Below, piece after piece: positions 46,686 through 60,085 of a stretch of DNA of 64,000 nucleotides (position 1 is the stretch's first letter; each line of letters opens with the position of its first letter). The notes below the pieces were generated by a model. The model made no database searches and was not told the origin of the DNA. It saw nothing but the letters and a program-made list of their open reading frames with translations. Source of the DNA: a bacterium (GTDB lineage Bacteria; Patescibacteriota; Microgenomatia; Woykebacterales; RBG-16-39-9b). The stretch lies in NCBI GenBank assembly GCA_030704665.1, contig JAUYID010000009.1:163-64162 (forward strand), written 5' to 3'. Both the position numbers and the translations under genes were made by a program.

Positions 46686-48059
46686 ATGGATCAACACCGT
46701 GTTTGGGAATCAGTTCTCGCCGAACTGAGGATAAATCTTTCTAGTGCCAACTATCAAACTTGGTTCAGGGGGAAGACGCAAATTCTTGCCATCAATGAGC
46801 GCCTAGTAGAAATTGGCTGCCAAAGCTCTTTCGTTCGGGACTGGCTTGAACAGAGATATTACGAGCAAATCAAGGTTTCCCTGGAAAGATTACTCGAGAA
46901 AAACGTCAATTTAGTTTTCAGTGTCAGCCCTCTGACTGATGTGGTGGCAGTCAAAGGCAAAGCAAAACTTTCTGATTCTGAACCGCCTCTTTTTACCTCG
47001 AACAAAAACTTGGACAAAGAAGAGCAGGAACGGGTAGCTCAGGCTGGGCTCAACCCCAATTATACTTTTGCAAACTTCGTCGTGGGCGGCAGCAACCAGC
47101 TTGCCTATGCAGTGGCGGAGGCGATCAGCAAAAAACCAGGGTCGGAATACAACCCTTATTTTATCTACGGCGGGGTCGGGGTCGGCAAGACCCACTTGAT
47201 GCAGGCAATCGGTGGTGCAGTTTTGGCAACCAAGCCTGGCCTTAGAGTTTTTTACTGCACAGCAGAACGATTCACCAACGAGTTGATTGAGTCGATTCAA
47301 ATGCGGAAAACCGCCGCTTTCCGAAATCGTTATCGCAGTATTGACCTTTTGATGATTGATGATGTCCAGTTCATCGCGGGAAGAGAAAGCACTCAGGAAG
47401 AGTTTTTCCACACCTTTAACGCGCTCTATTCAAACGGCAAGCAAGTCGTTCTGACTTCTGACCGACCTCCCGCGGAAATAAAAAAGCTTGAAGAGCGGCT
47501 GCGCAGCCGCTTTGAAGGGGGAATGATTTCTGACATCCAAAGCCCTGATGTTGACTTGAAAGAAGCGATTCTGCTCTCCAAGTGCCGCCTCCAAAACCAG
47601 GAGATTCCCGCAGAAGTCCTCCACTTTCTGGCGTTGGCCAGCGCGGGTAGTGTTCGGGATCTTGAGGGTTGTTTGGTCCGGCTAATTACCCGCTCAAAAA
47701 TGAGCGGGGAAGCTTACAGTCTCGAACTAGCGAAAAAAATTGTTGGCGACAAGATTGTTGAGCGCCGCCCCAACTCGGCGCGGAAGGTAGTCGAGCTGGT
47801 AGCTAGCTTCTTCGACGTCAAACAAGGGGATCTCAAAGGCTCAAGCCGGCAAGCACGTTTTGTTTTACCGCGACAGATTGCCATGTATCTTCTGCGCAAG
47901 GATCTAGGGTTGCCTTTAGAAAAGGTTGCTGAAATCCTAGGGAAAAAAGACCACACGACCGTAATTCACGGTGTGGACAAAGTAGAAAAGAATGTGGTTA
48001 ACTCAGAGATGTTAGCTTCTTGGCTGCGCCAGCTCCGCGAACAACTCTCTGACGGCTAA
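46686..48059 (+). CDS. dnaA: Chromosomal replication initiator DnaA
   Basis: Walker A GGVGVGKTHL, box VII, C-terminal DNA-binding helix HTTVIHG. Confidence 0.95.
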   Translation: MDQHRVWESVLAELRINLSSANYQTWFRGKTQILAINERLVEIGCQSSFVRDWLEQRYYEQIKVSLERLLEKNVNLVFSVSPLTDVVAVKGKAKLSDSEPPLFTSNKNLDKEEQERVAQAGLNPNYTFANFVVGGSNQLAYAVAEAISKKPGSEYNPYFIYGGVGVGKTHLMQAIGGAVLATKPGLRVFYCTAERFTNELIESIQMRKTAAFRNRYRSIDLLMIDDVQFIAGRESTQEEFFHTFNALYSNGKQVVLTSDRPPAEIKKLEERLRSRFEGGMISDIQSPDVDLKEAILLSKCRLQNQEIPAEVLHFLALASAGSVRDLEGCLVRLITRSKMSGEAYSLELAKKIVGDKIVERRPNSARKVVELVASFFDVKQGDLKGSSRQARFVLPRQIAMYLLRKDLGLPLEKVAEILGKKDHTTVIHGVDKVEKNVVNSEMLASWLRQLREQLSDG

Positions 48060-48238
48060 GAGACTTTTGTACTGTTTCTGTCCACAAAACTGTTCACAAA
48101 AAGCGTCTTTGTTTTGCACACCAATCCGGCTAAGGCTAGCAAGCGTCTGGTAGCACGCCTGCTTGCTGGGTTTTTTCAACAAAACCACACTAACTAATAT
48201 AACTACTAATTAAGTTGTTTAATAATTATTAATAGTAG
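48060..48238. promoter_or_regulatory. Candidate oriC (DnaA-box-like motifs plus AT-rich unwinding element) between dnaA and dnaN
   Basis: TGTCCACAA and TGTTCACAA (near TTATCCACA consensus) at about 48080-48100. Very AT-rich taactaatataactactaattaagttgtttaataattattaatag. Confidence 0.4.
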
Positions 48239-49345
48239 ATGAAAACCACCATTTTAAAAGAAGATTTGGCAAAAGCGCTCAACTTGGTTTCTCGAATTGT
48301 TTCTCCCAGACCAAGCTTGCCAGTGTTAAATAACGTTTTGCTCTCAGTAACCAAAGAGGGTGTTACTTTATCAGCCACCAACCTAGAAACCTCAATAAAA
48401 GTTAAAGCTCCGGCCAAAACAAGTTTGGAGGGATCAACCACAGTTCCGGCCAAGGTCTTCGGAGAGTTTATCAATAGTCTAAAGGAAGAAAAGCTGGACC
48501 TGGTTTTGGAAAAGGAGAACCTTGAGGTAGTCGGTGAAGCCACCAAAGCACAACTGGCGACAATTAATCCTTTGGAGTTTCCCGCCTTGCCGGAAATAAG
48601 GAAAGAAGAAACCGAAGTGTTGGAAAGCGCCGAGTTGGTTGAGGCAATTAACCAGGTGGTTTTTGCTGCCTCTGTTGATGAAGCCAGACCGATCCTGACT
48701 GGTGTTTTGCTCCGAGAAGAAAAGGGAGGCTTACTTTTTGTTGCCACCGATGGCTATCGGTTAGCAAAAAAGGAAACGAAAATTAAAACTAACTTAAAGG
48801 AGATGGTCGTACCGGCTAAGTCTTTACTAGAAGTTGCCAAGCTCATTACCGAGATGGGTGAGGAGGAAATCAGGTTGGGGCTTTTGGGAGAGAAAAACCA
48901 AGTGGTCTTTGTGGGCAACAACTTCGAGCTCTCTACCCGAGTTTTGGATGGGGCTTTTCCCAACTTCGAGCAAATTGTTCCCAAAAAGCTTATTCTGGAA
49001 ACAAAGCTGGACCGGGAGGGCCTCAGCGAGGCGGTCCGCCAAACAGCGGTTCTAGCCAAGGATTTAGGTAGTGTAGTCCAGATCGAAGCAAAACCGGGTA
49101 AGGAAATAGTCTTGAGCGCCAAGACCGCACAGCTTGGTCAAGCTACTACCAGACTGAGCGGCGAGGTCAGCGGGGAGGCAGTAAGCGTGGCCTTAAACTC
49201 AAGGTTTTTGTTGGAGGGTCTGTCCAACTTTAAAGCAAAGGAGATAAGCTTTGACCTTAGTGGAGCAACTAGCCCGGCGCTGCTTTCCGACAAAAAAGAC
49301 CCAAGCTTTATCTACATTGTCATGCCGGTTCGGGTCCAAGGTTAA
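48239..49345 (+). CDS. dnaN: DNA polymerase III beta sliding clamp
   Basis: 368 aa, position after dnaA, typical three-domain beta-clamp pattern. Confidence 0.9.
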   Translation: MKTTILKEDLAKALNLVSRIVSPRPSLPVLNNVLLSVTKEGVTLSATNLETSIKVKAPAKTSLEGSTTVPAKVFGEFINSLKEEKLDLVLEKENLEVVGEATKAQLATINPLEFPALPEIRKEETEVLESAELVEAINQVVFAASVDEARPILTGVLLREEKGGLLFVATDGYRLAKKETKIKTNLKEMVVPAKSLLEVAKLITEMGEEEIRLGLLGEKNQVVFVGNNFELSTRVLDGAFPNFEQIVPKKLILETKLDREGLSEAVRQTAVLAKDLGSVVQIEAKPGKEIVLSAKTAQLGQATTRLSGEVSGEAVSVALNSRFLLEGLSNFKAKEISFDLSGATSPALLSDKKDPSFIYIVMPVRVQG

Positions 49346-50439
49346 TGTTGGCCAGTCTTGAAATAACCAACTTCCGTAATCTCAAAAACTCTAAACTGGA
49401 GTTTGCCAAAACCTTAAACATTTTTTATGGGGACAACGCTCAGGGAAAAACCAATCTCCTCGAGGCGATTTTCCTAATTAGCACGGGTAAGTCCTTCAAA
49501 TCCGAAGTTGATCGGGAACTGATCGCCTGGGGACAAACCTCAGCCCGAGTCGTTGCTCAAGCACCACCTCTAGAGATAGAACTAACGATAAATGAGACAA
49601 ACAAAAGACTGCTCGTCAACCGCCAGAGCCGGCGTCTGATTGAGCTAGTGGGCGAGTTTTTAGTGGTTTTGTTTGCTCCCGAGGATTTAAGTCTGGTCTA
49701 CGGCGCCCCAAGTCAGAGAAGAGCTTGGATCAACAGCCTGATCTCTCGTGTCGATCGCAAGTACCTCTTTAATTTAGGTAAGTTTAACCAGGTAATCAAA
49801 AACCGCAATCGGGTCCTTCTCTCGCTAAACCAAGGAGGCAGCCCGGATCTAGGAGTTTGGGATGAACAGTTTATCAAACTCTCAGTCGATCTTTGGGTCA
49901 GCCGGCAAGAATATCTCGCTAAGGTGAACAGCTTTTTAAAACAAATTGCCCCGAAGCTCGGAGTCAGCAAAATTACCGTTGAGTACCATCCGCAACTTGC
50001 AGTCAAAGACGCAAAATCGTTAAAGGCAGTTTTGACCAAAGAGCTCGAAAAACGAAGAAGAGAGGAGGTAGCCCGCGCGCAGACTGTTTTGGGTCCCCAC
50101 CGCGACGACTTTAAACTCATTTTTGAACAAATTGAGAGCGAGAAGGTTTTGACCAAGGATGTTTCTGTCTTTGGTTCCCGCGGTGAGCAGAGAACCGGAG
50201 TGCTCAGCCTGAAACTAGCAGAAATTGAGCTGATTGAAATGATCAAAGGTAAAAGACCGACGTTACTTTTGGATGACGTTTTAAGTGAATTTGACAAAAA
50301 ACACCGAGAAATGATTCAAGGGTTGCTTTATCGCCAGCAAAGTTTTATTACCACTACCGCGACCGACCTGCTCGATAAAAAACTTTTGAGCAAGGCAAAA
50401 CTCTTTCAGCTTAAAACTGGGCAAGTTGAGGCTGGCTAA
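49345..50439 (+). CDS. recF: DNA replication and repair protein RecF
   Basis: Walker A GDNAQGKTNLLEAI, signature motif and Walker B LLLDDV. Confidence 0.9.
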   Translation: MLASLEITNFRNLKNSKLEFAKTLNIFYGDNAQGKTNLLEAIFLISTGKSFKSEVDRELIAWGQTSARVVAQAPPLEIELTINETNKRLLVNRQSRRLIELVGEFLVVLFAPEDLSLVYGAPSQRRAWINSLISRVDRKYLFNLGKFNQVIKNRNRVLLSLNQGGSPDLGVWDEQFIKLSVDLWVSRQEYLAKVNSFLKQIAPKLGVSKITVEYHPQLAVKDAKSLKAVLTKELEKRRREEVARAQTVLGPHRDDFKLIFEQIESEKVLTKDVSVFGSRGEQRTGVLSLKLAEIELIEMIKGKRPTLLLDDVLSEFDKKHREMIQGLLYRQQSFITTTATDLLDKKLLSKAKLFQLKTGQVEAG

Positions 50440-52508
50440 CGCTCCAGGGGGTGGTAGGGCACCTTTTGTTTGGTGTTGAGGCTGACCTGGGTGGTCGTCT
50501 CTGATTTGAGTTCGACCGGAGCTGGTTTGGCCTCTTCCGGTTTTGGTTCTCGGGCCGGTGGCGCCTCAACTTCCTTTGGAGCCAAGGGTGTTTCTTGCCT
50601 CTCCTCCGCTTTGACTGGGAGCGCTGGTCCCGTTTCTCTAGCCAGTTTGGGGGCGGGGGGTATCTCCCCGCGTTCCAGTTTTTCCAGCAGGGCTGGGTCC
50701 TCTCGTCCCAGACGACGCAGTTTTTCTAGCTCCTTTGGGTTGGAGGTGATCAGAACGTGCTCGTGTTCGGCAGCCTGGACGCGGATAGCGACATGGTTTG
50801 CGCCAGCAAAGAAAAGACCCTCCCCGATATCAGCGCTGAGAAGCAGATTCTTCTCCCCCTCGGAAAGGTAGAAAACGGCCGAGACTTCGTTTATCGAAGC
50901 CGGTGACTGTTTGAGAAGAATTTGGATTGAGGAGTTGGTTACGATCGCCTTACCGTAATCAGTGTTGAGGAAATCTTCCACGTCTTGGGTGATGGTTGTC
51001 AAACCAAGGAAATACTTACGGGCTCTTTTAGCAATCGAGTACATGAAAGAAGCAGAATCAGGATGTTTCATCAGGTACCAAGCTTCATCAACGACGAGAA
51101 TTCTGCGCTTGCGGTCCTTTTTGATCCGAGTCCAAATGTAGTCAAGAATGATAAACATGGCAATCGGCCGCAGTTCGTCCTCCAGATCCCGTATCGAGAA
51201 GACCGTGAAAGTGTTTTTAATATCAACTGTGCTTTGTTGATCAAAAATTCCAGAAAGAGAACCTTTGATGAATTTTTCGAGCCTTTCCGCCATGGATTTG
51301 GCTTCGGGTTCGGCCATGTTTTGCAGAACCGAGTAAAGGTCTTCCATGACCGGAGATTCACTTGTTTGGGTGGTTGGATCTGGAGTGATTCCTTTCTGTT
51401 TGTAAGTAAGAATCAAGGCCCGGTCAAGGACAGCGTCTTCGGTTGAAGTGAGTTTCCCCAGAATGACCCGAAAAAGGGAATGCAGGGAAAGAATCTTAAG
51501 CCCTAGTTCGTTTTCGCCTTCCTCGTAAACTCCGGAGAGGTCGAAGGGGTTAATTTTAGCCTCAGTTTCTGTAGCAAACTTGATGTACTCCCCACCAATG
51601 GCTTTACAGAGCTCGCCATACTCTTCTTCTGGGTCGATAACGATGACTTCAGTGCCAAACATTAAACTGCGCAGAGTTTCCAGCTTGACCATGTAGCTTT
51701 TCCCCGCCCCAGACTTGGCAAAAACGACGCTATTAGCGTTTTCCAAAGTGAAACGATCAAAAATAATTAAAGAGCCGTTGTGCTCATTGATACCGTACAT
51801 GATTCCTTCGTTGGCAGTTAGCTCTGAAGAAGTAAAGGGAAAGGTTGTTGCCAAGCTCGTGGTGTCCATGTTGCGGGTAACAAAAAGCTTGTCACTAAAA
51901 GTGGGTAAGGTAGCCCGAAAGCCATCTTCTTGTTGAAGAGTAGCGTGTTTGGTGACCACCAGCAAAGAGCCTAGGGTCGACTCGACCTGCTTGGTGATGG
52001 AGTTGAGCTCCTCCAGAGATTCAGCTGGGATGGTGATATAAAAAGACATTTGAAAAAAGCGTTCAATACCCGCCGCTAGTTGCTCCTGCAGAGATTGGGC
52101 GTCTTCCAAGGCAACACGAACAGCCGGATCAACCACCCGACCAGCTTCCAGGTCACTTTGAACAGTTGCCTCCATCTCGGCAATTTTGTGGCGCAGGTCG
52201 TCAAGGATCCCCTTTGATTCTACGGGGTAGCAGTAAAAACAAAGGTCCAGGGTGTGGTCAAAGTTAATAATTGGGGCAAGCCAATTAGCCCCGACAAAAC
52301 GAGGGTAGCCGGAAACAAAGAGAGTTCGAAAGTAAAGATCCCCTAGTTTAAGGTTGTCAAAATCAACTTCAAGCGCCGGTGGAGCGATAATATCTTTAAC
52401 ATCGACCATCCCCGCTCCCAAAGTCTTAGAAATTTTGTTCCTCGTTTTCGCAAGCTCTATTTCCTGAGGAGAAGGAGTTTTTTTCTTCGGGAGGAGAGAA
52501 AATTTCAT
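50436..52508 (-). CDS. virB4: VirB4/TrbE/CagE-type type IV secretion ATPase (ATPase portion)
   Basis: Walker A FAKSGAGKS, Walker B ILVVDEAW, overall VirB4 C-terminal organisation. Confidence 0.75.
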   Translation of the reverse strand: MKFSLLPKKKTPSPQEIELAKTRNKISKTLGAGMVDVKDIIAPPALEVDFDNLKLGDLYFRTLFVSGYPRFVGANWLAPIINFDHTLDLCFYCYPVESKGILDDLRHKIAEMEATVQSDLEAGRVVDPAVRVALEDAQSLQEQLAAGIERFFQMSFYITIPAESLEELNSITKQVESTLGSLLVVTKHATLQQEDGFRATLPTFSDKLFVTRNMDTTSLATTFPFTSSELTANEGIMYGINEHNGSLIIFDRFTLENANSVVFAKSGAGKSYMVKLETLRSLMFGTEVIVIDPEEEYGELCKAIGGEYIKFATETEAKINPFDLSGVYEEGENELGLKILSLHSLFRVILGKLTSTEDAVLDRALILTYKQKGITPDPTTQTSESPVMEDLYSVLQNMAEPEAKSMAERLEKFIKGSLSGIFDQQSTVDIKNTFTVFSIRDLEDELRPIAMFIILDYIWTRIKKDRKRRILVVDEAWYLMKHPDSASFMYSIAKRARKYFLGLTTITQDVEDFLNTDYGKAIVTNSSIQILLKQSPASINEVSAVFYLSEGEKNLLLSADIGEGLFFAGANHVAIRVQAAEHEHVLITSNPKELEKLRRLGREDPALLEKLERGEIPPAPKLARETGPALPVKAEERQETPLAPKEVEAPPAREPKPEEAKPAPVELKSETTTQVSLNTKQKVPYHPLER

Positions 52509-53236
52509 TGCTGCTCCCCCCCTTTTGCTTGGTTGATGACCGGTTCGAGAGCGGGTTGAACAATGGGGGTGGTGTATTCTTGGGTTGAAAGAGCTGCTTT
52601 TTGTTCTCGAGCCACTTCTGGGTTGTAAAGATCGTAGAAAAGCTCGACCAGCTCTTCCGTCGCGAGCTGTTTGCCTTTGATCCCAATACGGTTGAGTTGT
52701 TTGACGAGATGAGCGATTTTTGGGGCTAAGTTTATCTTAGCTTTTTCGAGAGTACTCCACTTGTTCCCCACCACAGTTTTTTTTGGGAAAAGAGCTGGTG
52801 GTTTGATTTGCGATAAATCTCCTGAGAAATAGGGGACTACTACATAAAAACGCTTGTCGAGAACTTGATTGCGAGAAACCAGATCGCGGACAAACCGAGA
52901 GTAAAGGTCAATCTGTCCCGCCAAACGCTCATTTTTGGTTTCTGCTTTGGCTCCATCCAAGAGTTTGAGGTAGTTGGAAATATCCATCCTTTTGGACCGC
53001 ACAATGATCTGAATTGGAAAGGTCAGTGAGTTCAAAAGAGCTGCATAAGCAAAGATCATTGCGTCTTGCTCGGATTCGCTTAAAAGGTCAAAATTGACCG
53101 CGTTGGTCTGAAGGATAGCCGCTGCTCCTCCGTTTTTCAAAATGATCAGATCATCGCGAATGTCTTCGACATCGAGGTGTTCTTGAGTTGTCGGAAGTCT
53201 TTTTGCTTTGGACATTTTAAATTGCCTTGATTTCAA
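52505..53236 (-). CDS. VirB4 N-terminal-domain-like protein (possible split VirB4 or separate T4SS component)
   Basis: ATGA start/stop overlap with the downstream ATPase ORF. Combined length about 930 aa, matching full-length VirB4. Confidence 0.4.
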   Translation of the reverse strand: MKSRQFKMSKAKRLPTTQEHLDVEDIRDDLIILKNGGAAAILQTNAVNFDLLSESEQDAMIFAYAALLNSLTFPIQIIVRSKRMDISNYLKLLDGAKAETKNERLAGQIDLYSRFVRDLVSRNQVLDKRFYVVVPYFSGDLSQIKPPALFPKKTVVGNKWSTLEKAKINLAPKIAHLVKQLNRIGIKGKQLATEELVELFYDLYNPEVAREQKAALSTQEYTTPIVQPALEPVINQAKGGEQQ

Positions 53237-55334
53237 TTGGCTTCATGATTTCCCCGCCTAATTGAACTTGGGTAATGTCGAATTCCAAACTATCTTTTTC
53301 AAGCTCAATATTGTAAGTCCCGTTGGGTAGAGGAGTGGAGATCACAAATTGACCAATTTTGTTGGATTTTAGAGCCCGAACCGGCTCCCCCTTCTCATCT
53401 TTGATAATCATGACTGCTCCAGAAACGAGTAAACCCCCCTTGTCGCGAACAATCCCATTGACGACATTGGGGAAGGAAACTTTGGGCGGAATCATTTTTC
53501 CAAAAGCCGGCTGGGCAGCTACAACATTCCTCCCCCGCGCTTTCTTGGCCCTTTCCTTCTCGGCGAGAGCCTTTACTTCCTCTGCAATTTTGGCTTTCTG
53601 AACTACCAATTCTTTTTGTCTTTCGGTCGCCGCTTCCCCTTCGTTTCTGGCCTTTAGCTCACTTTCCCGAATTTTTTTGTCGATCTGCTCGTTGAGAAGG
53701 TGAACTTCGGCCGCAATTCTCTGTTTTTCACCTTGATATTGAAGCCCCTCGTATTGAACCATGATATCTGCTTGGTGCTCCAAATTTTTTAAAGTATCAG
53801 ACAACTTGTCCCGCTCCCCTTCGGAGAGCTGCTCTCGGCCCAGTTTGGCAAGTTTGCCTTCTGCCACAATGGTATCTTTTTGAATTTCTTGGCGATCGGC
53901 GCGGTGGGCCAAAACTTTCGGATCGACCGGAGTTTTAACGGGTTCGGCAATTTGGGCCGCCTGTTTTTCTGAAATTATTACCGGGTTGTTGATGACAAGA
54001 GGTGGCTGGGTGGGGCCCATTTTACTCATATCGAGGTTCTTGGATGTTTCTTCCAGGTTGCCCGGGAGTTTGATTACTTCTTGACCAGTCTTTTCTTCAG
54101 AAGCCTCGAGTTTAACTTCTTTTGGCTCGGTTTGTTTTTCTTCAACCACTTTAGGAGGGCTTGGAGGTACTAGTTGCGGGTTTTCCCCGCTTGGTTTTTC
54201 GACAGCCTCAGTTTCTAGGGCCGTTTTGGTAGGTTGTGGGCTTTCGGGGGCTTTAACGGCGGGTTCTTTGACCGCCTCAACACTTGTACTAGCTAGCGCG
54301 CTTACTGGGTTCTGTTCAGCTACTTCGGGAAGTAATTCTTTTTGAGCCGGGATATTTATTGGGGTATAAGAAGCCTTGGTCAGCTCAGAGGGTTTTTTTG
54401 AAAGCTCAATCAGTTTCTCGGCCAAAGGCGGTAGTTTGGCTAGGGACTCAAGTGGCGAGCCCTTGGTTTCGGTCGAGGGCCCGAGCGGACGCACTTCAGA
54501 GACCACAACCTCCTTGGGCTCAAATTTAATTTTTTGACTTGGAGGGGTCGGCTCTGCCTTGAGAGTTGGCGGCAGGCTAATTTGTTTGTTAGGTTGGGGC
54601 AACTCGCGCCCTTCTTCTTTGGGGGGTGCTGCTGGGAGAGGGTTTGGTGTCTTGGTTTCGGGTTGAGCGGAAGCGCCCAGCCCCGCAGTTGGGTTTTTGG
54701 TCTCCTCGAGCCGTGGTTCAGGCGTTTTTGTTGCCGGCAAGCTACCAACAACTGGCTTGGGAGCTGGCTGGTTGACGGCGACGGTCTTGGCGGAAACAGG
54801 AAGAGCCTGAGAAGCTGCTTGAGCCACGGCCTGTTTTTGGTTTCGTTGACTCAAAAGACTGCGGGCAGCCTGGGTAGTTTTGGTTAGCTCGGAAAGCAGT
54901 TTGCTGCGGTCAGCCAAAGGGGAAATCTGACTTTTGAAGCTTGGGGCCGGGACGCCCAAGTAGATAGGAGCTGTTTGCGGCTCGAGTAGGGGCCTGGCAG
55001 CGGCCTGAACTTGGGAACCAATTCCAGCCTGCAAGCTCTCCGGAAACTCAAAGACACGCTCACCGCGAACGGGCAAAATTGCTTGGCCATTAAGAGCAAC
55101 AGGACGAAGGTAACGAGGTTGGCTATTGTTGACACCTCTGACATAGACTAGCTTCCGACCCATCTTGACGGTGGCGACGGGGTTGAAGCCAACTTCGGAG
55201 GCAATTTTTGGTTTATCCTCTTTAGTCTCACTGATAGTCCGCGCCTTTTCGGTCGGTGAAAAACGATGCAGGGTGGGGATGTGAACAAAGGTACGCAGCT
55301 TTGCCGCAGCTTTGGTCAGAACCTCATTGCTCAT
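53217..55334 (-). CDS. Pro/Thr/Lys-rich T4SS-associated protein with coiled coil and a C-terminal carboxypeptidase-regulatory-like beta domain
   Basis: Long low-complexity P/T/K-rich spacer, coiled-coil KERAKKARG region, and C-terminal VISTPLPNGTYNIELEKD beta-sandwich-like end. Confidence 0.4.
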   Translation of the reverse strand: MSNEVLTKAAAKLRTFVHIPTLHRFSPTEKARTISETKEDKPKIASEVGFNPVATVKMGRKLVYVRGVNNSQPRYLRPVALNGQAILPVRGERVFEFPESLQAGIGSQVQAAARPLLEPQTAPIYLGVPAPSFKSQISPLADRSKLLSELTKTTQAARSLLSQRNQKQAVAQAASQALPVSAKTVAVNQPAPKPVVGSLPATKTPEPRLEETKNPTAGLGASAQPETKTPNPLPAAPPKEEGRELPQPNKQISLPPTLKAEPTPPSQKIKFEPKEVVVSEVRPLGPSTETKGSPLESLAKLPPLAEKLIELSKKPSELTKASYTPINIPAQKELLPEVAEQNPVSALASTSVEAVKEPAVKAPESPQPTKTALETEAVEKPSGENPQLVPPSPPKVVEEKQTEPKEVKLEASEEKTGQEVIKLPGNLEETSKNLDMSKMGPTQPPLVINNPVIISEKQAAQIAEPVKTPVDPKVLAHRADRQEIQKDTIVAEGKLAKLGREQLSEGERDKLSDTLKNLEHQADIMVQYEGLQYQGEKQRIAAEVHLLNEQIDKKIRESELKARNEGEAATERQKELVVQKAKIAEEVKALAEKERAKKARGRNVVAAQPAFGKMIPPKVSFPNVVNGIVRDKGGLLVSGAVMIIKDEKGEPVRALKSNKIGQFVISTPLPNGTYNIELEKDSLEFDITQVQLGGEIMKPIEIKAI

Positions 55335-55939
55335 TTAGAAGCCTCCAAATCATCTGCGCCAAGAGGGGGTAAAACTTGTCCTGGTGGGGAAGATTTAATT
55401 TCTGAGGTCATCTGGGCGACTTGTTGGCTGAGCTGCCCTAGTCTTTTTTCCTCTTCCACATCAAGAGCCGATTTGGCTCCGAGGTGGTGGTGAGAAACCA
55501 AATACTGGTTAAGTTTGGCCCTGTCGGAGTGGGCAATTGGCTTTGGTCCTTGCTGATGTTGGAGATAGATGGAAAACTCAGGAGCTAAGAAGCCGAGCTC
55601 AACTGGCTCTTTGCGCCAAACTCGCTGGGTTGGAGTATAGACGGAGCGGACAAAAGCAACAAGCCAACGATCGAAAGGAATGTCGTTTATCGGCAAAAAA
55701 GCAAGCGCCAAGCCCAGAGGACCGATTAGAAAGATGAGTAAAAAGCGAACTATTATATACAGAGGTATGAGATAAATAACAAAGCAGAGAATACCCGCAG
55801 CCGCCAAATAACCAAACTGACGAATGGTCAGAAAACCAACTAATTTAAATTCAAACCCAGTTATGTTCTGCGGGACAGGATGAGACTGCATACTTTTTTG
55901 TTTAAAACTCGGGAAGCGAGTTTTTCCTTGCTTTGTCAC
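55331..55939 (-). CDS. VirB3/PrgI-like small membrane T4SS protein
   Basis: Two adjacent TM helices (FGYLAAAGILCFVIYLIPLYIIVRFLLIFLIGPLGLALAF). Immediately upstream of the other T4SS genes. Confidence 0.4.
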   Translation of the reverse strand: MTKQGKTRFPSFKQKSMQSHPVPQNITGFEFKLVGFLTIRQFGYLAAAGILCFVIYLIPLYIIVRFLLIFLIGPLGLALAFLPINDIPFDRWLVAFVRSVYTPTQRVWRKEPVELGFLAPEFSIYLQHQQGPKPIAHSDRAKLNQYLVSHHHLGAKSALDVEEEKRLGQLSQQVAQMTSEIKSSPPGQVLPPLGADDLEASK

Positions 55940-56168
55940 TTCTTTCGGCGAAAAAATCTCGATAAATCAGGCCAAAAGAGACATTAAGTAAGTTAATTGC
56001 TTCTCTCTTCTTTTGATCGCAAGCATAATTATGCTGTTCTTTAGCCTCAAAAGCAAGTGCTTCAAAGTAGTTCTAACTAGCTATAAAGATAACCCTGATT
56101 CGGGCCTTTTCCGCAGCAAAATTAGCGAAGAAAGTCTTTAGGCCTTCGAGGTCCCAAGCTCGAAGAGC

Positions 56169-56202
56169 GCAAGCTTTTCTTGATTTAGCTCTCAAGAAAA
56201 GC
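56169..56202. promoter_or_regulatory. Perfect 13-bp palindrome (AAGCTTTTCTTGA-N8-TCAAGAAAAGCTT) abutting the -35 of a consensus promoter: candidate operator
   Basis: Read directly from the sequence; ends 6 nt before the -35 TTGACT. Confidence 0.45.
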
Positions 56203-56208
56203 TTATAG

Positions 56209-56237
56209 TCTTGACTTTTAGCTTCAGTCGAGTTATA
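56209..56237 (+). promoter_or_regulatory. Near-perfect sigma70 promoter TTGACT-N17-TATAAT
   Basis: TTGACT-tttagcttcagtcgagt-TATAAT on the plus strand. Confidence 0.6.
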
Positions 56238-56243
56238 ATAGCT

Positions 56244-56418
56244 CAAACTAAAAACCGGCTAAGGTAGACCCCGGAAAAATAGTCTGACAGAAATGAAAAA
56301 GACATTTAAGCTTCAGAAACAGAAAGCTAGAGCCAATCCCCAGCAATGGGGTCTTTCGGCATAAGGCTGAAAGAACGGGCTCTGGCAATCAGCAATGATC
56401 ACCAGAGCCCGTTTTTTG
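56244..56418 (+). ncRNA. About 170-nt promoter-to-terminator unit (small RNA, or a 34-aa Lys-rich peptide MKKTFKLQKQKARANPSNGVFRHKAERTGSGNQQ)
   Basis: Consensus promoter upstream. Intrinsic terminator GGGCTCTGG-15nt-CCAGAGCCC plus TTTTTT at 56375-56418. Internal hairpin CCCCAgcaaTGGGG. The ORF lacks a convincing SD and runs into the terminator stem. Confidence 0.4.
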
Positions 56419-56710
56419 TTGAGTAGCCCTTTTACAATTAAAGAGTTAGAAAATTGTTCACCTCAAAGTGCGCGAGAGCCTTGGGGGAAAGATGGAAGCT
56501 GAGCTTAGAAAATGGCCTCTAGTAGCGAAAAAAGAGCTAAACTAGTTGTAATAGGCAGCCTAGAGCTTGCTTTTATCTTCCCCCCAATGCGCTGTTGCTT
56601 TTATGCACTCGCTTGGGGATCAACTTCACTTACACGTCTGGCTTTCAGGCTAGTACGTTTTGATCCACAACAACGAGTTGCATAGCAACAAGAGCAGCAC
56701 TGGGAGGTGC

Positions 56711-59700
56711 AAAATGACAGACGGTATCGATGACGCAACTCCTGATGAGGGACTAACACCTCAGGAAGAAGCGATTCTCCGTGGAAAGGAAGCTGCTTGG
56801 CTGACTGACTACGGCTATCTAGCTGGCGAGGGGACCCCCTACGCCAACGACAATCAGCATCTGCTTCACCTCGGGTGGAGGGACAGCAGTAATAACTACG
56901 ATCGAGTCATGAGTATGGAAATGATTCAGCGTCGGTACCACTCGAAGCTGGTCTTTTTCGCAGTAACTCGAGAAGCCAAGTTCTCAGTACAGCAGCAGTT
57001 TCGTACTACTGAAGGGGGAATCCAACGCCCCTTGTATGTCTCGTCCGAGTGGTATGTCTGGGAGTACAAGAAAACTGACGGACCCACACATGACGAAAAG
57101 GGTTGGCCTCTCAAAAGAGAAAGCAGACGGGTTCCAGCACAGGCAACGGATCAAGGGGCTTTTAGGGAGCCTAGTACTACTTTGGACATTCAGAAGGCCG
57201 ATAGGGACCGTGATGGCACTCCGATAGTCGCCACCGGTTCTGTATTCATGGGGTGGAAGTACAACTTCCAGCCTGTGGGCGACGCCGACATTCGGGCCGA
57301 AGACAGCAAGGTCTACGCACGAGTTCAGAGGATCTGGAACAATACCGGCAAGCTACCGAGTGTACTTCAGACGGGTGAGGAGAAGACGATTAAGAACGAC
57401 CTTCTCCAGCTTCTGAAGGACCTTAAAGAATTGACCGGTGAGGACTGGAGTACCAAGGGCAATCCCAACGAGGCCAATCGCCGTGTCATTATGGAGCGGC
57501 GCTGGATACTCGGCCGGAACCACCCCGAGACTTACCAACAGCATCTTCGGGTGCTGGGTGGCAAGATCCCAGAGGAGTACTTCTTCGCTGAGTACAACGA
57601 GCTCCGCCGGCAGAAGGCCCGCAATATGGACCGCCCGCTGGAAGAGCAGGATCGTGTTCGCGATCCCTACTCGGCCAGCCTGAAACACCTGCTCGACAAG
57701 CGGGTCGACGGACGGATCGTTTACGCGGGAACTCCAGAGTATGATGAGGCTCGCGGTAGACTGATTCCCGAGATCAGGATCACTCTGCTCAATGACCACG
57801 GCCTCTCAACCTTGGCCGAGTACAATATCACGCAGAAGTACCTGATCAACGGCTACACTTTCGAAAGAACCTGGGAGTGGCAGCAGAACATGCGGGCGAA
57901 GGCTCTTCAACGAGCTAGCCTCAGGGTTAAGCTGCCGAAGAGTCACCCACTCCACTTGTCCCCGAACGCAGTGGGGGATTTTGTGGACGATTATCCTGAA
58001 GGTCGAACCTTCTGGATAACTCCATCCTGCAGCGACGCTTTTGTACGTTCCTTGGCAAATCAGATTCGCACCGATTACCGGGAAGAGCTTCCGGAAGGTG
58101 TCGAATTCACTCGGGACGAAGGCGGTCGTGAAGTGATGCGTCGGCTCCCGTCATTGCGAAACCAAGGCGGGGAAGAGGAGAAGCAGTTCTCCGATGAGTT
58201 GAACGCAGATATCCTCACCGCCACGTCAATAACGACCCTGGCGGATAAGAAGTGCCGTAACGTCAACGCCTTCGCGCATATTGTGAAGAGCTGTCGTATC
58301 ACTCGGGACGGTCAAGCTGACTTTACCGAGGCGAAAGAGGTACGTCTCACGATCGAGGAGGATCGTGATAAGCAGAGGCGTAATGAAGATCAAGTACAAA
58401 CTCGAACTCTAACCATGGCTTATGATGCTGGTCAGCTCGACCAGAATCGCCCTGGCCAGGCACGAGATCGAGGAATTGGTGGTCCGCGCAGCGCAGAGCC
58501 GTGGATTGCTGATCCAAAGTTCCGCCTCAATTGGTGTCTCTTGTACAAGCAGAGGCGAGACCCGAGAACAGGCAAGATTCTGCGCAACGATCTAGGCAAC
58601 CCTCTTTGGGAGCCACGCTACAGCTCAGAGGATGGGGCTCGTGCCTCGGTAATGATACAGAGAGCACTTGCGAACCCAGCCACAGATGTTGTGGTACCGA
58701 CTCAAGAAGAGGCCGTCAAGAAGGCCTGGAAGAAGCGCTGCGACGAGAACCTCTTCGTGGCCCAGTTCGTTCAGGATCCCTACTACGACCGGCGGCCCGC
58801 GGACACGGCCATCGCTACCAACCTGATCGGTCGCAAGACCAGTATCACGGGTGGGGTGAAGCTAAATATTACGGGGGCCACCAAGGCTGCCAACGGCAAG
58901 GGCTACACCTTCGACGATCTTCTCAAGGATCTGCCGGGGCTACGTAACTACTTGCCGAACGACTACGATCAGAACGGAGCCTTCGATGGCAAGCTCGATG
59001 AGGAATTTTACATCCTTCAACTCGAGCTCATGTTCTACATCGACCCTCGCTATGTTGCCAAGATTCACAAGGGTTCGTGGAGTTGGTATCTCTTCCACGA
59101 GCAGAACATGCGTGTCACACGCATCAGCGAGGACCTGCGTGCCACCCGAGCCAATTTCCTGCGTCAGCAGGACGTTGCCTGGGGGATGTGGGCTGGACAA
59201 TCGCCGAAGGGGATGGTGCTACACTGTGACGAGACGCTTAGCACCGACATCCACAACGGGATTTTCAACCCGTTGCCGGACTTGCAGAAGGCTGCCAACG
59301 GCTACCCCGGCATTCACATGCCGAACGTAATCATGGTGGCTCCAGATGGGCAGAAGTGGAACCTTCAGGACCGGCCCAGGAAAGACTTCGAAGATGCTTA
59401 CACACCGCTCAACTGGAGAGCTCACGAGCATATCGGCAGAGGAGAGGCAGACGACACCTTCATTGGTTACGCGACTGCTTTCTCGACCAGTACCTTCACC
59501 GGACTAGCTCACTCTGGCCTGGGGCGGCGTCTGGGTGATACAGAGGCGGAAACCTATCTCGTTCGTGCTCAGGGTAGGCAGTCTTGGGTGAATGGAGTAG
59601 TTCCGGCTCTCAAGTCCCACGCTGAGGCAGTCTCAGCCTTTGGGACCGGTGACCTGAACGAGAATGATTGGATGAGGTCTGCTCTTGATAGCGGTAAGGT

Positions 59701-60085
59701 GACTGGCGAGTGGTTTAAGTCCACAGGACAGTTGTTCTGGAAGGGCGAGAAGGTTCAGGAGGTCAAGATCCTCCACACTGCCGAATACATCAAGGACCAC
59801 TCCTACCCAGACAATCCTCGCGATGCTCACGAGCTGGCGAAGATGATCTGGGAACGCCGTATTGACGGGAAAGGTTACCGCTATGGTTGGGAAGAGGTTG
59901 AGGCGGAAGCAATACGGATTCTCTTTGGTGGTCAGCGACCGGCTCAGTTGAACCCGCATGGCCGCTGGAGGCTGAACGCGATCTACTGGGCTTACCGAAC
60001 TACCCGCCATTTCCGTGCGGTCTCACTGACCAGCGAGGAGGAGAGGAGTCACGAACGGCCGGTAATCCATTTAGCAGCGGCTTAG
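56711..60085 (+). CDS. Large (1124 aa) GC-rich orphan protein of no recognisable family, inserted inside the T4SS locus
   Basis: ATG with GGGAGGTG 4 nt upstream (the ORF-track start at 56660 is 17 codons earlier, without an RBS). Consistent GC-rich codon usage over 3.4 kb. No P-loop, HExxH, TM or signal peptide seen. Trp/Tyr/Arg/Asp-rich. Confidence 0.6.
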   Translation, partial: KMTDGIDDATPDEGLTPQEEAILRGKEAAWLTDYGYLAGEGTPYANDNQHLLHLGWRDSSNNYDRVMSMEMIQRRYHSKLVFFAVTREAKFSVQQQFRTTEGGIQRPLYVSSEWYVWEYKKTDGPTHDEKGWPLKRESRRVPAQATDQGAFREPSTTLDIQKADRDRDGTPIVATGSVFMGWKYNFQPVGDADIRAEDSKVYARVQRIWNNTGKLPSVLQTGEEKTIKNDLLQLLKDLKELTGEDWSTKGNPNEANRRVIMERRWILGRNHPETYQQHLRVLGGKIPEEYFFAEYNELRRQKARNMDRPLEEQDRVRDPYSASLKHLLDKRVDGRIVYAGTPEYDEARGRLIPEIRITLLNDHGLSTLAEYNITQKYLINGYTFERTWEWQQNMRAKALQRASLRVKLPKSHPLHLSPNAVGDFVDDYPEGRTFWITPSCSDAFVRSLANQIRTDYREELPEGVEFTRDEGGREVMRRLPSLRNQGGEEEKQFSDELNADILTATSITTLADKKCRNVNAFAHIVKSCRITRDGQADFTEAKEVRLTIEEDRDKQRRNEDQVQTRTLTMAYDAGQLDQNRPGQARDRGIGGPRSAEPWIADPKFRLNWCLLYKQRRDPRTGKILRNDLGNPLWEPRYSSEDGARASVMIQRALANPATDVVVPTQEEAVKKAWKKRCDENLFVAQFVQDPYYDRRPADTAIATNLIGRKTSITGGVKLNITGATKAANGKGYTFDDLLKDLPGLRNYLPNDYDQNGAFDGKLDEEFYILQLELMFYIDPRYVAKIHKGSWSWYLFHEQNMRVTRISEDLRATRANFLRQQDVAWGMWAGQSPKGMVLHCDETLSTDIHNGIFNPLPDLQKAANGYPGIHMPNVIMVAPDGQKWNLQDRPRKDFEDAYTPLNWRAHEHIGRGEADDTFIGYATAFSTSTFTGLAHSGLGRRLGDTEAETYLVRAQGRQSWVNGVVPALKSHAEAVSAFGTGDLNENDWMRSALDSGKVTGEWFKSTGQLFWKGEKVQEVKILHTAEYIKDHSYPDNPRDAHELAKMIWERRIDGKGYRYGWEEVEAEAIRILFGGQRPAQLNPHGRWRLNAIYWAYRTTRHFRAVSLTSEEERSHERPVIHLAAA

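Follow-up and report, generated by a model that had tools for sequence, protein, structure and literature searches.

A conserved mRNA leader with a predicted transcription attenuator precedes a gene beside the type IV secretion operon of Woykebacteria-like Patescibacteria

We analyzed a 64,000-nucleotide (nt) stretch of DNA (GenBank assembly GCA_030704665.1, contig JAUYID010000009.1, positions 163 to 64,162 of the forward strand; hereafter the window), which is part of a ~0.94-Mb contig from an uncultured bacterium that belongs to the Candidate Phyla Radiation (CPR, or Patescibacteria). An 822-bp gap between a PrgI-family gene of a type IV secretion system (T4SS)–like operon and an open reading frame (ORF) for a 1123-aa protein (56714 to 60085) contains a promoter followed by a short unit that ends in an intrinsic terminator. 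This region is most likely the promoter and first domain of a ~470-nt conserved cis-acting mRNA leader for the gene that starts at 56714. Comparison of homologous loci indicates that the element is a conserved cis-regulatory leader, and we lean toward reading its first domain as a ribosome-dependent transcription attenuator controlling this T4SS-neighbor gene. The family is new and absent from Rfam; the principle, a terminator and an anti-terminator combined with a leader ORF, is already known.

The unit is present in 23 non-identical loci from Woykebacteria-like CPR genomes and metagenomes, mostly labeled Woykebacteria or Patescibacteria, whose PrgI proteins are 43 to 66% identical to that of the window. 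The loci were fetched from genomes and metagenomes via PrgI relatives, and the unit was found in them by nhmmer, a covariance model, and inspection. The covariance-model search, which an earlier reading of the window made without database searches (the sequence-only reading) had proposed, covered 166 loci and gave no more distant members beyond the nhmmer set; in the window, the model matches 56313 to 56419 with E = 5e-26. In every locus, the unit diverges from PrgI. Of 19 loci examined, 18 extend far enough downstream to tell, and in each of these a large same-strand ORF begins 225 to 440 nt past the terminator; the remaining one (L097) ends too soon to show it. These large ORFs are mutually homologous. 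Rfam 15 gave no match in the window at the gathering threshold except a tRNA, and none in nine homologous loci; at E ≤ 10, only noise was returned in 55900 to 56750, where weak matches to small RNAs (sRNAs) corresponded to the terminator read on the minus strand.

The plus-strand promoter of the unit, TTGACT-N17-TATAAT, had been recognized in the sequence-only reading, and a consensus scan agreed: with its −35 element at 56211 to 56216 and its −10 element at 56234 to 56239 it matches 11 of 12 consensus positions and is the best site in 54000 to 59000. The predicted terminated transcript (56246 to 56418, about 172 nt) has a minimum free energy (MFE) of −59.5 kcal/mol (z = −5.6 versus shuffles). 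It ends in a strong intrinsic terminator, likewise noticed earlier, that consists of a 5′ arm termed motif B (GGGCTCTGG, 56377 to 56385), an apical part (56386 to 56401; ATCA GCAA TGAT, with a GNRA-type loop), and a 3′ arm termed motif C (CCAGAGCCC, 56402 to 56410) followed by a G-T6 tract up to 56418; the hairpin energy is −21.8 kcal/mol. Across the family, the 16 terminator pairs are 92.3% paired, and 7 of them have compensatory changes; of the 7 apical pairs, 6 show such changes. The observed score was reached by none of 500 shuffles, and the RNAalifold consensus of the full-length alignment is this terminator.

Upstream of the terminator lies a second partner for its 5′ arm. Motif A (CTAGAGCC, 56327 to 56334, plus strand; consensus CCAGAGCC) nearly repeats the sequence of the terminator 3′ arm, and since A matches C, it is complementary to B. 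When the RNAs were cut just before C as a mimic of the nascent transcript, B paired with A in the MFE fold of all 19 sequences, the A:B helix enclosing one or two clade-specific hairpins. RNAalifold applied to a structure-blind MAFFT alignment of the C-less RNAs gave exactly this helix, whose outer pair covaries in that alignment (GC in four cases, AU in four, and CG in one). A whole-family MAFFT alignment put motif A out of register in one clade, and a covariance-model alignment and register-anchored counts were used instead. In the covariance-model alignment (14 sequences), pairing in A:B reaches 96.4%, and one pair is compensatory; A:B counted together with the apical hairpin is 89.8% paired, compared to 23 to 46% in slid controls. 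At one position, A, B, and C change jointly: one group has G/C/G, another has A/U/A, and wobble intermediates occur. The duplex energy of A:B was better than that of dinucleotide shuffles at p ≤ 0.05 in 12 of the 19 sequences. A scan of 951 kb on both strands for triples in which A equals C, B is the complement, and a T-run follows returned the motif's triples only in family members; the single other triple, CTTGGTG, is located in the second leader domain of L012 and of its duplicate locus L104. The A:B pairing is thus an alternative that is exclusive with the terminator, with covariation limited to one or two pairs.

A short ORF runs across motif A. In the window, it occupies 56293 to 56364 on the plus strand (23 codons and a TAA; MKKTFKLQKQKARANPQQWGLSA) and lacks a clear Shine-Dalgarno (SD) sequence, as had been remarked in the sequence-only reading. 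The same reading had given the peptide as 34 aa long with its stop within the terminator stem; from the ATG at 56293 its actual size is 23 aa, and the TAA (56362 to 56364) lies in the loop of the second internal hairpin, 12 nt upstream of the stem. An AUG-initiated ORF of 13 to 29 codons that crosses A and ends before B was found in 18 of 19 homologs versus 3.6 expected from dinucleotide shuffles of the upstream sequence, its stop being located 11 to 38 nt upstream of B. Depending on the clade, motif A is read in all three frames (as P-E-P, Q-S-P, or R-A), and since the frame differs, A is conserved as nucleic acid with an ORF kept over it. The leader peptides are basic and hydrophilic and have a loose Lys/Ile/Leu-rich pattern in common. 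In L101 (~1040 to 1075), the leader ORF carries a 36-nt in-frame insertion with two extra hairpins between motif A and its Pro-Gly-stop end. In one clade (L009, L090, L101, and L108), the leader AUG is 2 to 5 nt from the predicted transcription start, which implies leaderless or nearly leaderless translation in these loci.

These elements suggest the following sequence of events. Transcription would initiate near 56246 at a strong sigma-70–type promoter, and the nascent RNA would carry the short ORF running through motif A. Pairing of A with B would come first, with the hairpins P2 and P3 enclosed; because A:B forms first and takes the terminator 5′ arm, it would act as an anti-terminator. Once emerged, C could capture B to form the far more stable terminator, and transcription would stop at the T-tract to yield the ~172-nt RNA. 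A ribosome on the leader ORF would unwind or sterically block A:B and leave B for C. Efficient, closely coupled leader translation would therefore lead to termination (OFF), B being free for C, while leader translation that is absent, slow, or stalled upstream of A would let A:B persist and allow read-through to the second domain and the large gene (ON). The second domain may provide a translational layer, its C-rich strand being able to sequester the large gene's SD. Both translation of the leader ORF and the direction of the switch (translation leading to OFF) are what we infer from the arrangement of the sequence. The physiological signal is a matter of guesswork; it could be general translational capacity or nutrient status.

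Several observations weigh against ribosome-dependent attenuation. Covariation in A:B is thin: 4 of the 8 pairs are invariant, and one to two are compensatory. Because half of the pairs never vary, the case for A:B rests mainly on conserved complementarity and energy. The terminator state is favored by 4.6 to 20.8 kcal/mol across homologs and by 11.3 kcal/mol in the window. A:B can therefore prevail only through kinetics or with assistance, and strand displacement might make termination constitutive unless something stabilizes A:B. An intact leader ORF is missing in L011. SD-like sequence precedes 9 of 18 leader ORFs, with none in the window, and four leader ORFs are nearly leaderless, beginning no more than five nucleotides from the predicted start of transcription. 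In the clade of the window, a ribosome that has reached the stop codon leaves A uncovered, so it would have to block A:B sterically or by unwinding it. The leader ORFs have no run of same-amino-acid codons that would point to a sensed metabolite. Substitutions in these ORFs show no third-position excess (35/34/45), and the changed codons comprise 53 non-synonymous versus 9 synonymous cases. Since this codon-position and synonymous-change test gave no coding signature, an arrest-peptide or signaling-peptide reading is unsupported. Conservation of the presence of the ORF, but not of the peptide sequence, is what would be expected if ribosome occupancy rather than the peptide matters.

Alternatively, the same terminator/anti-terminator switch could be set not by the ribosome but by a factor bound at the three-way junction formed by A:B, P2, and P3, whether a protein, an sRNA, or a small ligand, in the manner of an ON-type transcriptional riboswitch or of protein-dependent anti-termination, with the ORF being secondary. 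P2 (CCCCAGCAATGGGG; CCCC AGCAAT GGGG, 56338 to 56351) is the internal CCCC/GGGG hairpin that the sequence-only reading had pointed out, and P3 (TCTTTCGGC ATAAG GCTGAAAGA, 56352 to 56374) holds the leader stop codon in its loop; both are predicted by folding on the plus strand. A helix closing a junction of one or two hairpins, with a 3′ strand that also belongs to the terminator, is the standard layout of an ON riboswitch. With a terminator far stabler than A:B, a stabilizing factor would make such a switch work, and the initiation signals of the leader ORF are weak. However, P2 and P3 differ between clades in number, length, and sequence, with no conserved junction nucleotides seen, unlike any ligand-binding aptamer: in L165, P2 is exchanged for a different hairpin (CCACCTGC..GCAGGTTGG), and at the position of P3, L003 and L001 have a 9-bp hairpin of different sequence. 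Moreover, Rfam gave no match even at E ≤ 10, and the ORF is kept far above chance and always traverses A. We therefore consider control by a bound factor unlikely. T-box and riboswitch readings were rejected because conserved cores are lacking; no aptamer core is conserved across members. A further stem-loop is predicted near the 5′ end of the transcript (56255 to 56274, CCGG...CCGG), and counterparts with different sequences could be read by eye in L003 and L165.

The sequence-only reading had left a choice between a small RNA and a leader-peptide or attenuator arrangement. The attenuator option is the one supported by the conserved promoter, ORF, terminator, anti-terminator, and downstream gene, with no intervening promoter found; the length of the peptide and the position of its stop had to be corrected as described above. 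As an independent small gene, the unit would make an always-terminating ~172-nt RNA, functioning as a trans-acting sRNA and/or the mRNA of a basic peptide of 17 to 29 aa, and the large gene would be expressed from its own unrecognized promoter. Such a gene would account for the strong promoter, the strong terminator, the highly structured RNA, the conserved ORF, and the loose Lys/Ile/Leu-rich pattern of the peptides, and it would have a parallel in pCF10, where a small peptide gene, prgQ, heads the leader of the T4SS operon (PMC8265641). Yet a plain terminator would explain neither why the complementarity of A and B is conserved nor why it covaries with the terminator in a position-specific way. 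Besides, the consensus scan, on which this negative result depends, revealed no sigma-70–like site (≥9/12) between the terminator and the large ORF in the window (56419 to 56713) or in 18 of 19 homologs, and this spacer is conserved and structured up to the SD. The peptide shows no visible purifying selection and no hydrophobic stretch resembling a signal peptide, and no conserved single-stranded seed region is evident in the RNA. A free-standing gene is thus improbable. The absence of promoter-like sites from the spacer, together with its conservation and structure, instead argues that the unit is the first domain of a two-part leader, with the intrinsic terminator placed within the 5′ leader of the large gene and, as far as the consensus scan can tell, no promoter-like site between them.

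The second conserved structured part of this leader (56419 to 56713, plus strand) was delimited by conservation and structure. It contains a CTTTTACAA box (CTTTAACAA-type) at 56428 to 56436, a long-range helix (56475 to 56499 with 56569 to 56593) that has some compensatory changes in the closest clade, an A-rich box (TAGTAGCGAAAAAAGAGCTAAAC) at 56520 to 56542, and a hairpin at about 56584 to 56622, and it ends with the SD GGGAGG (56702 to 56707) before the ATG at 56714. The C-rich 5′ arm of the hairpin is the strand that best complements the SD region of the large gene in about 14 of 18 sequences, with z of −2 to −5 in most of these; in the window, complementarity of the hairpin arm is weaker (z = −0.5), and the best anti-SD is CACCTC at about 56458 to 56463.

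The proposed regulated gene (56714 to 60085, plus strand) was assigned by homology and position. Its 1123-aa product is predicted to be soluble, with an acidic N terminus and no recognizable domain; sequence searches of Pfam, NCBIfam, and the PDB gave no match. Although the sequence-only reading had called this gene an orphan, it is not a true one: syntenic homologs are found in most family loci, the closest being the large ORFs of L001 (E = 1e-109) and L091 (1e-99), with others weaker. A word-index search recovered only one relative, and an exhaustive HMMER profile search of 1.84 billion proteins only 16 representatives, which makes this a small, fast-evolving, position-conserved family. AlphaFold2 run on a two-sequence alignment gave no usable model (mean predicted local distance difference test score of 29.7).

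A broader and frankly speculative interpretation, to which we assign little credence, treats the whole ~470-nt leader as a CPR-specific two-tier sensor that would tie the large T4SS-associated protein to translational state, reflecting what an episymbiont gains from its host. The leader-ORF attenuator would be one tier, and the SD-sequestering domain with its conserved A-rich box the other. One possibility within this interpretation is pausing at a Pro-rich end of the leader peptide, dependent on elongation factor P or on proline supply. PPP and PPG-stop are known ribosome stalling contexts, and such ends occur in two clades; since the peptide of the window lacks one, they are only a lead.

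At the DNA level, the promoter is preceded by two palindromes. A perfect 13-bp inverted repeat with an 8-nt gap (AAGCTTTTCTTGA at 56171 to 56183 and TCAAGAAAAGCTT at 56192 to 56204) lies between about −75 and −42 relative to the predicted start, and a 7-bp palindrome, CTTCGAG-N8-CTCGAAG (56144 to 56150 and 56159 to 56165), lies farther upstream, followed by the conserved box AGCGCAAG up to 56172. Both had been listed in the sequence-only reading, and both lie inside the ~150-bp untranscribed stretch that separates two divergent predicted promoters. The 13-bp repeat is not a chance occurrence, because apart from the terminator the window has no other perfect inverted repeat that reaches 11 bp with a loop of up to 16; a length of 13 bp was reached in none of 200 shuffles of the local region. 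The repeat at 56171 to 56204, perhaps along with that at 56144 to 56165, could serve as a DNA operator for the leader promoter and/or the divergent PrgI promoter, as its exceptional statistics and its position between the promoters would suggest. Inverted repeats of at least 6 bp and unrelated sequence occur in about 9 of 22 loci if L005 is counted, at roughly the same offset in eight of these; the remaining loci have none, and 6 of 22 reach p ≤ 0.05. An adjoining CTATAGG box shows strict conservation and is particular to this promoter type. The palindrome sequence itself is not conserved, however, and the claim of an operator-like element is unsupported as it was made. The closest relative, L165, retains only AAGCTT..AAGCTT plus the box GCGCAAG. 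Neither half-site sequence nor spacing is kept among orthologous promoters: arms vary from 4 to 13 bp and loops from 3 to 16 nt, too much for a fixed operator, and more than half of the loci lack a significant repeat at this place. No gene for a regulator was identified, and 13-bp arms with an 8-bp spacer are atypical for a repressor site. The palindrome is non-random, and a regulator site at this position is possible but unproven; an operator function for these repeats seems to us doubtful rather than probable.

At the position of the 7-bp palindrome, many homologs have a hairpin of unrelated sequence followed by GCGCAG or GCGCAAG. A module composed of a short hairpin, GCGCAG, N5, and GAGAGTAC recurs 5′ of the promoter in L001, L010, L011, L090, and others (56144 to 56172 in the window). 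In several loci, a second copy of this module is located just past the terminator (about 56419 to 56436) and is followed by CTTAACAA.

The promoter signature CTATAGG(A/G)TTGAC-N17/18-(TG)nTAnAAT is kept throughout the family and has a single occurrence in the window, where its TATAG box is at 56204 to 56208. In all members, the CTATAGG(A/G) box adjoins the −35 element (56204 to 56216 in the window), often preceded by TTACGGAG. One clade has a second copy of the signature before a gene for a Cys-rich (CxxC) protein situated between the leader unit and PrgI (L009 ~2675, L011 ~2447, L097 ~1649, and L107 ~2563), and the recurrence of this promoter type suggests a shared regulator or promoter class. 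A T7/SP6-like promoter, brought to mind by CTATAGG, was rejected: only the CTATA core fits, and no single-subunit polymerase domain was found among the neighboring genes. CTATAG as a divergent or tandem −10 element was ruled out because its sixth base is not a conserved T.

The leader unit lies next to an origin-proximal gene cluster. The genes dnaA, dnaN, and recF (46686 to 50439, plus strand) directly adjoin the T4SS-like operon, so that the two occupy 46686 to 55891, an arrangement also described in PMC12102498. The operon is encoded on the minus strand and comprises genes for a VirB4/TraG–P-loop ATPase (50436 to 52508), a TrsD/TraC-like protein (52505 to 53236), a 705-aa protein (53217 to 55334), and the PrgI-family protein (55331 to 55891), which is the VirB3-like neighbor named in the sequence-only reading. 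BLASTN against plasmids gave no match. A chromosomal T4SS cluster beside the origin of replication, adjoining dnaA, is reportedly widespread in Patescibacteria, and T4SS genes were identified as essential for epibiotic growth in Saccharimonadia; promoters and RNA elements are not discussed for this T4SS (PMC12102498). Control of the T4SS operon by the unit, which had also been proposed, is unsupported, the operon having its own candidate promoter ~150 bp away on the other strand (TTGCTT 56056 to 56051, N17, and CATAAT 56033 to 56028), with boxes that on inspection seem to be kept in relatives. A TTCGCCGAAAAA-like motif is present in the PrgI 5′ region (55943 to 55956), and one clade has an additional copy in the post-terminator spacer.

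To our knowledge, gene regulation in CPR/Patescibacteria is almost entirely unexplored. A delimited promoter-leader-attenuator unit offers a concrete and testable way into the question of when a T4SS-linked gene is turned on and adds a family lacking from current RNA databases. If the two-tier sensor interpretation were true, the leader would represent the first family of cis-regulatory RNAs described at the Patescibacteria T4SS locus.

Among known regulatory RNAs, the pbuE/ydhL adenine riboswitch, an ON-type transcriptional riboswitch, resembles the CPR leader in that its P1 helix closes a three-way junction and the P1 3′ strand doubles as the terminator 5′ arm. The CPR leader differs from it in having no conserved aptamer core, clade-specific P2 and P3 hairpins, and a conserved ORF that runs through the strand equivalent to the P1 5′ strand.

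The closest architectural analog in a T4SS context is the prgQ leader of pCF10 from Enterococcus faecalis, which comprises the PQ promoter, the small ORF prgQ, the intergenic terminators IRS1 and IRS2, the anti-Q RNA, and PrgU (PMC8265641); the analogy concerns architecture only, sequence similarity having been neither tested nor seen. A relationship between the CPR T4SS and the monoderm, pCF10-like class MPF_FATA has been reported (PMC12102498). In both leaders, a small ORF just after the promoter and a conditional terminator are part of a long structured leader before T4SS-cluster–associated genes, and short terminated as well as long read-through transcripts are expected. In pCF10, however, the choice at IRS1 is made by the antisense anti-Q RNA, and the peptide, a pheromone precursor, is hydrophobic and secreted (PMC8265641), whereas the CPR leader peptides are basic, hydrophilic, and unconserved in sequence. 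The prgQ/anti-Q combination of an antisense promoter and a hydrophobic pheromone precursor was not found here: no minus-strand promoter-like site was listed within 56246 to 56720 in the consensus scan, which a weak antisense promoter could escape.

The classical ribosome-mediated attenuators include the trp, his, leu, thr, and pheA leaders of Enterobacteria and leaders of the ermK and bmrB-bmrCD type in Bacillus. Unlike these, the CPR leader has three competing segments (A, B, and C) rather than four; no anti-anti-terminator partner for A was seen by eye, no systematic search having been made. It also lacks a regulatory codon run, and neither the peptide sequence nor the frame across A is conserved. 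Past the terminator, it continues with a further ~295 nt of conserved structured RNA with an SD-sequestering strand. Its host is a CPR bacterium, its target is a T4SS neighbor, and there is no sequence or Rfam relationship. What it shares with the classical systems is the order of promoter, short ORF, mutually exclusive anti-terminator and terminator, and regulated gene, an ORF that overlaps one of the competing strands, so that the position of a ribosome can decide the fold, and a terminator that is thermodynamically favored, with an anti-terminator that wins only kinetically. Since a terminator and an anti-terminator with a leader ORF are textbook components, the value of the CPR leader lies in its organism and its target, not in a new mechanism.

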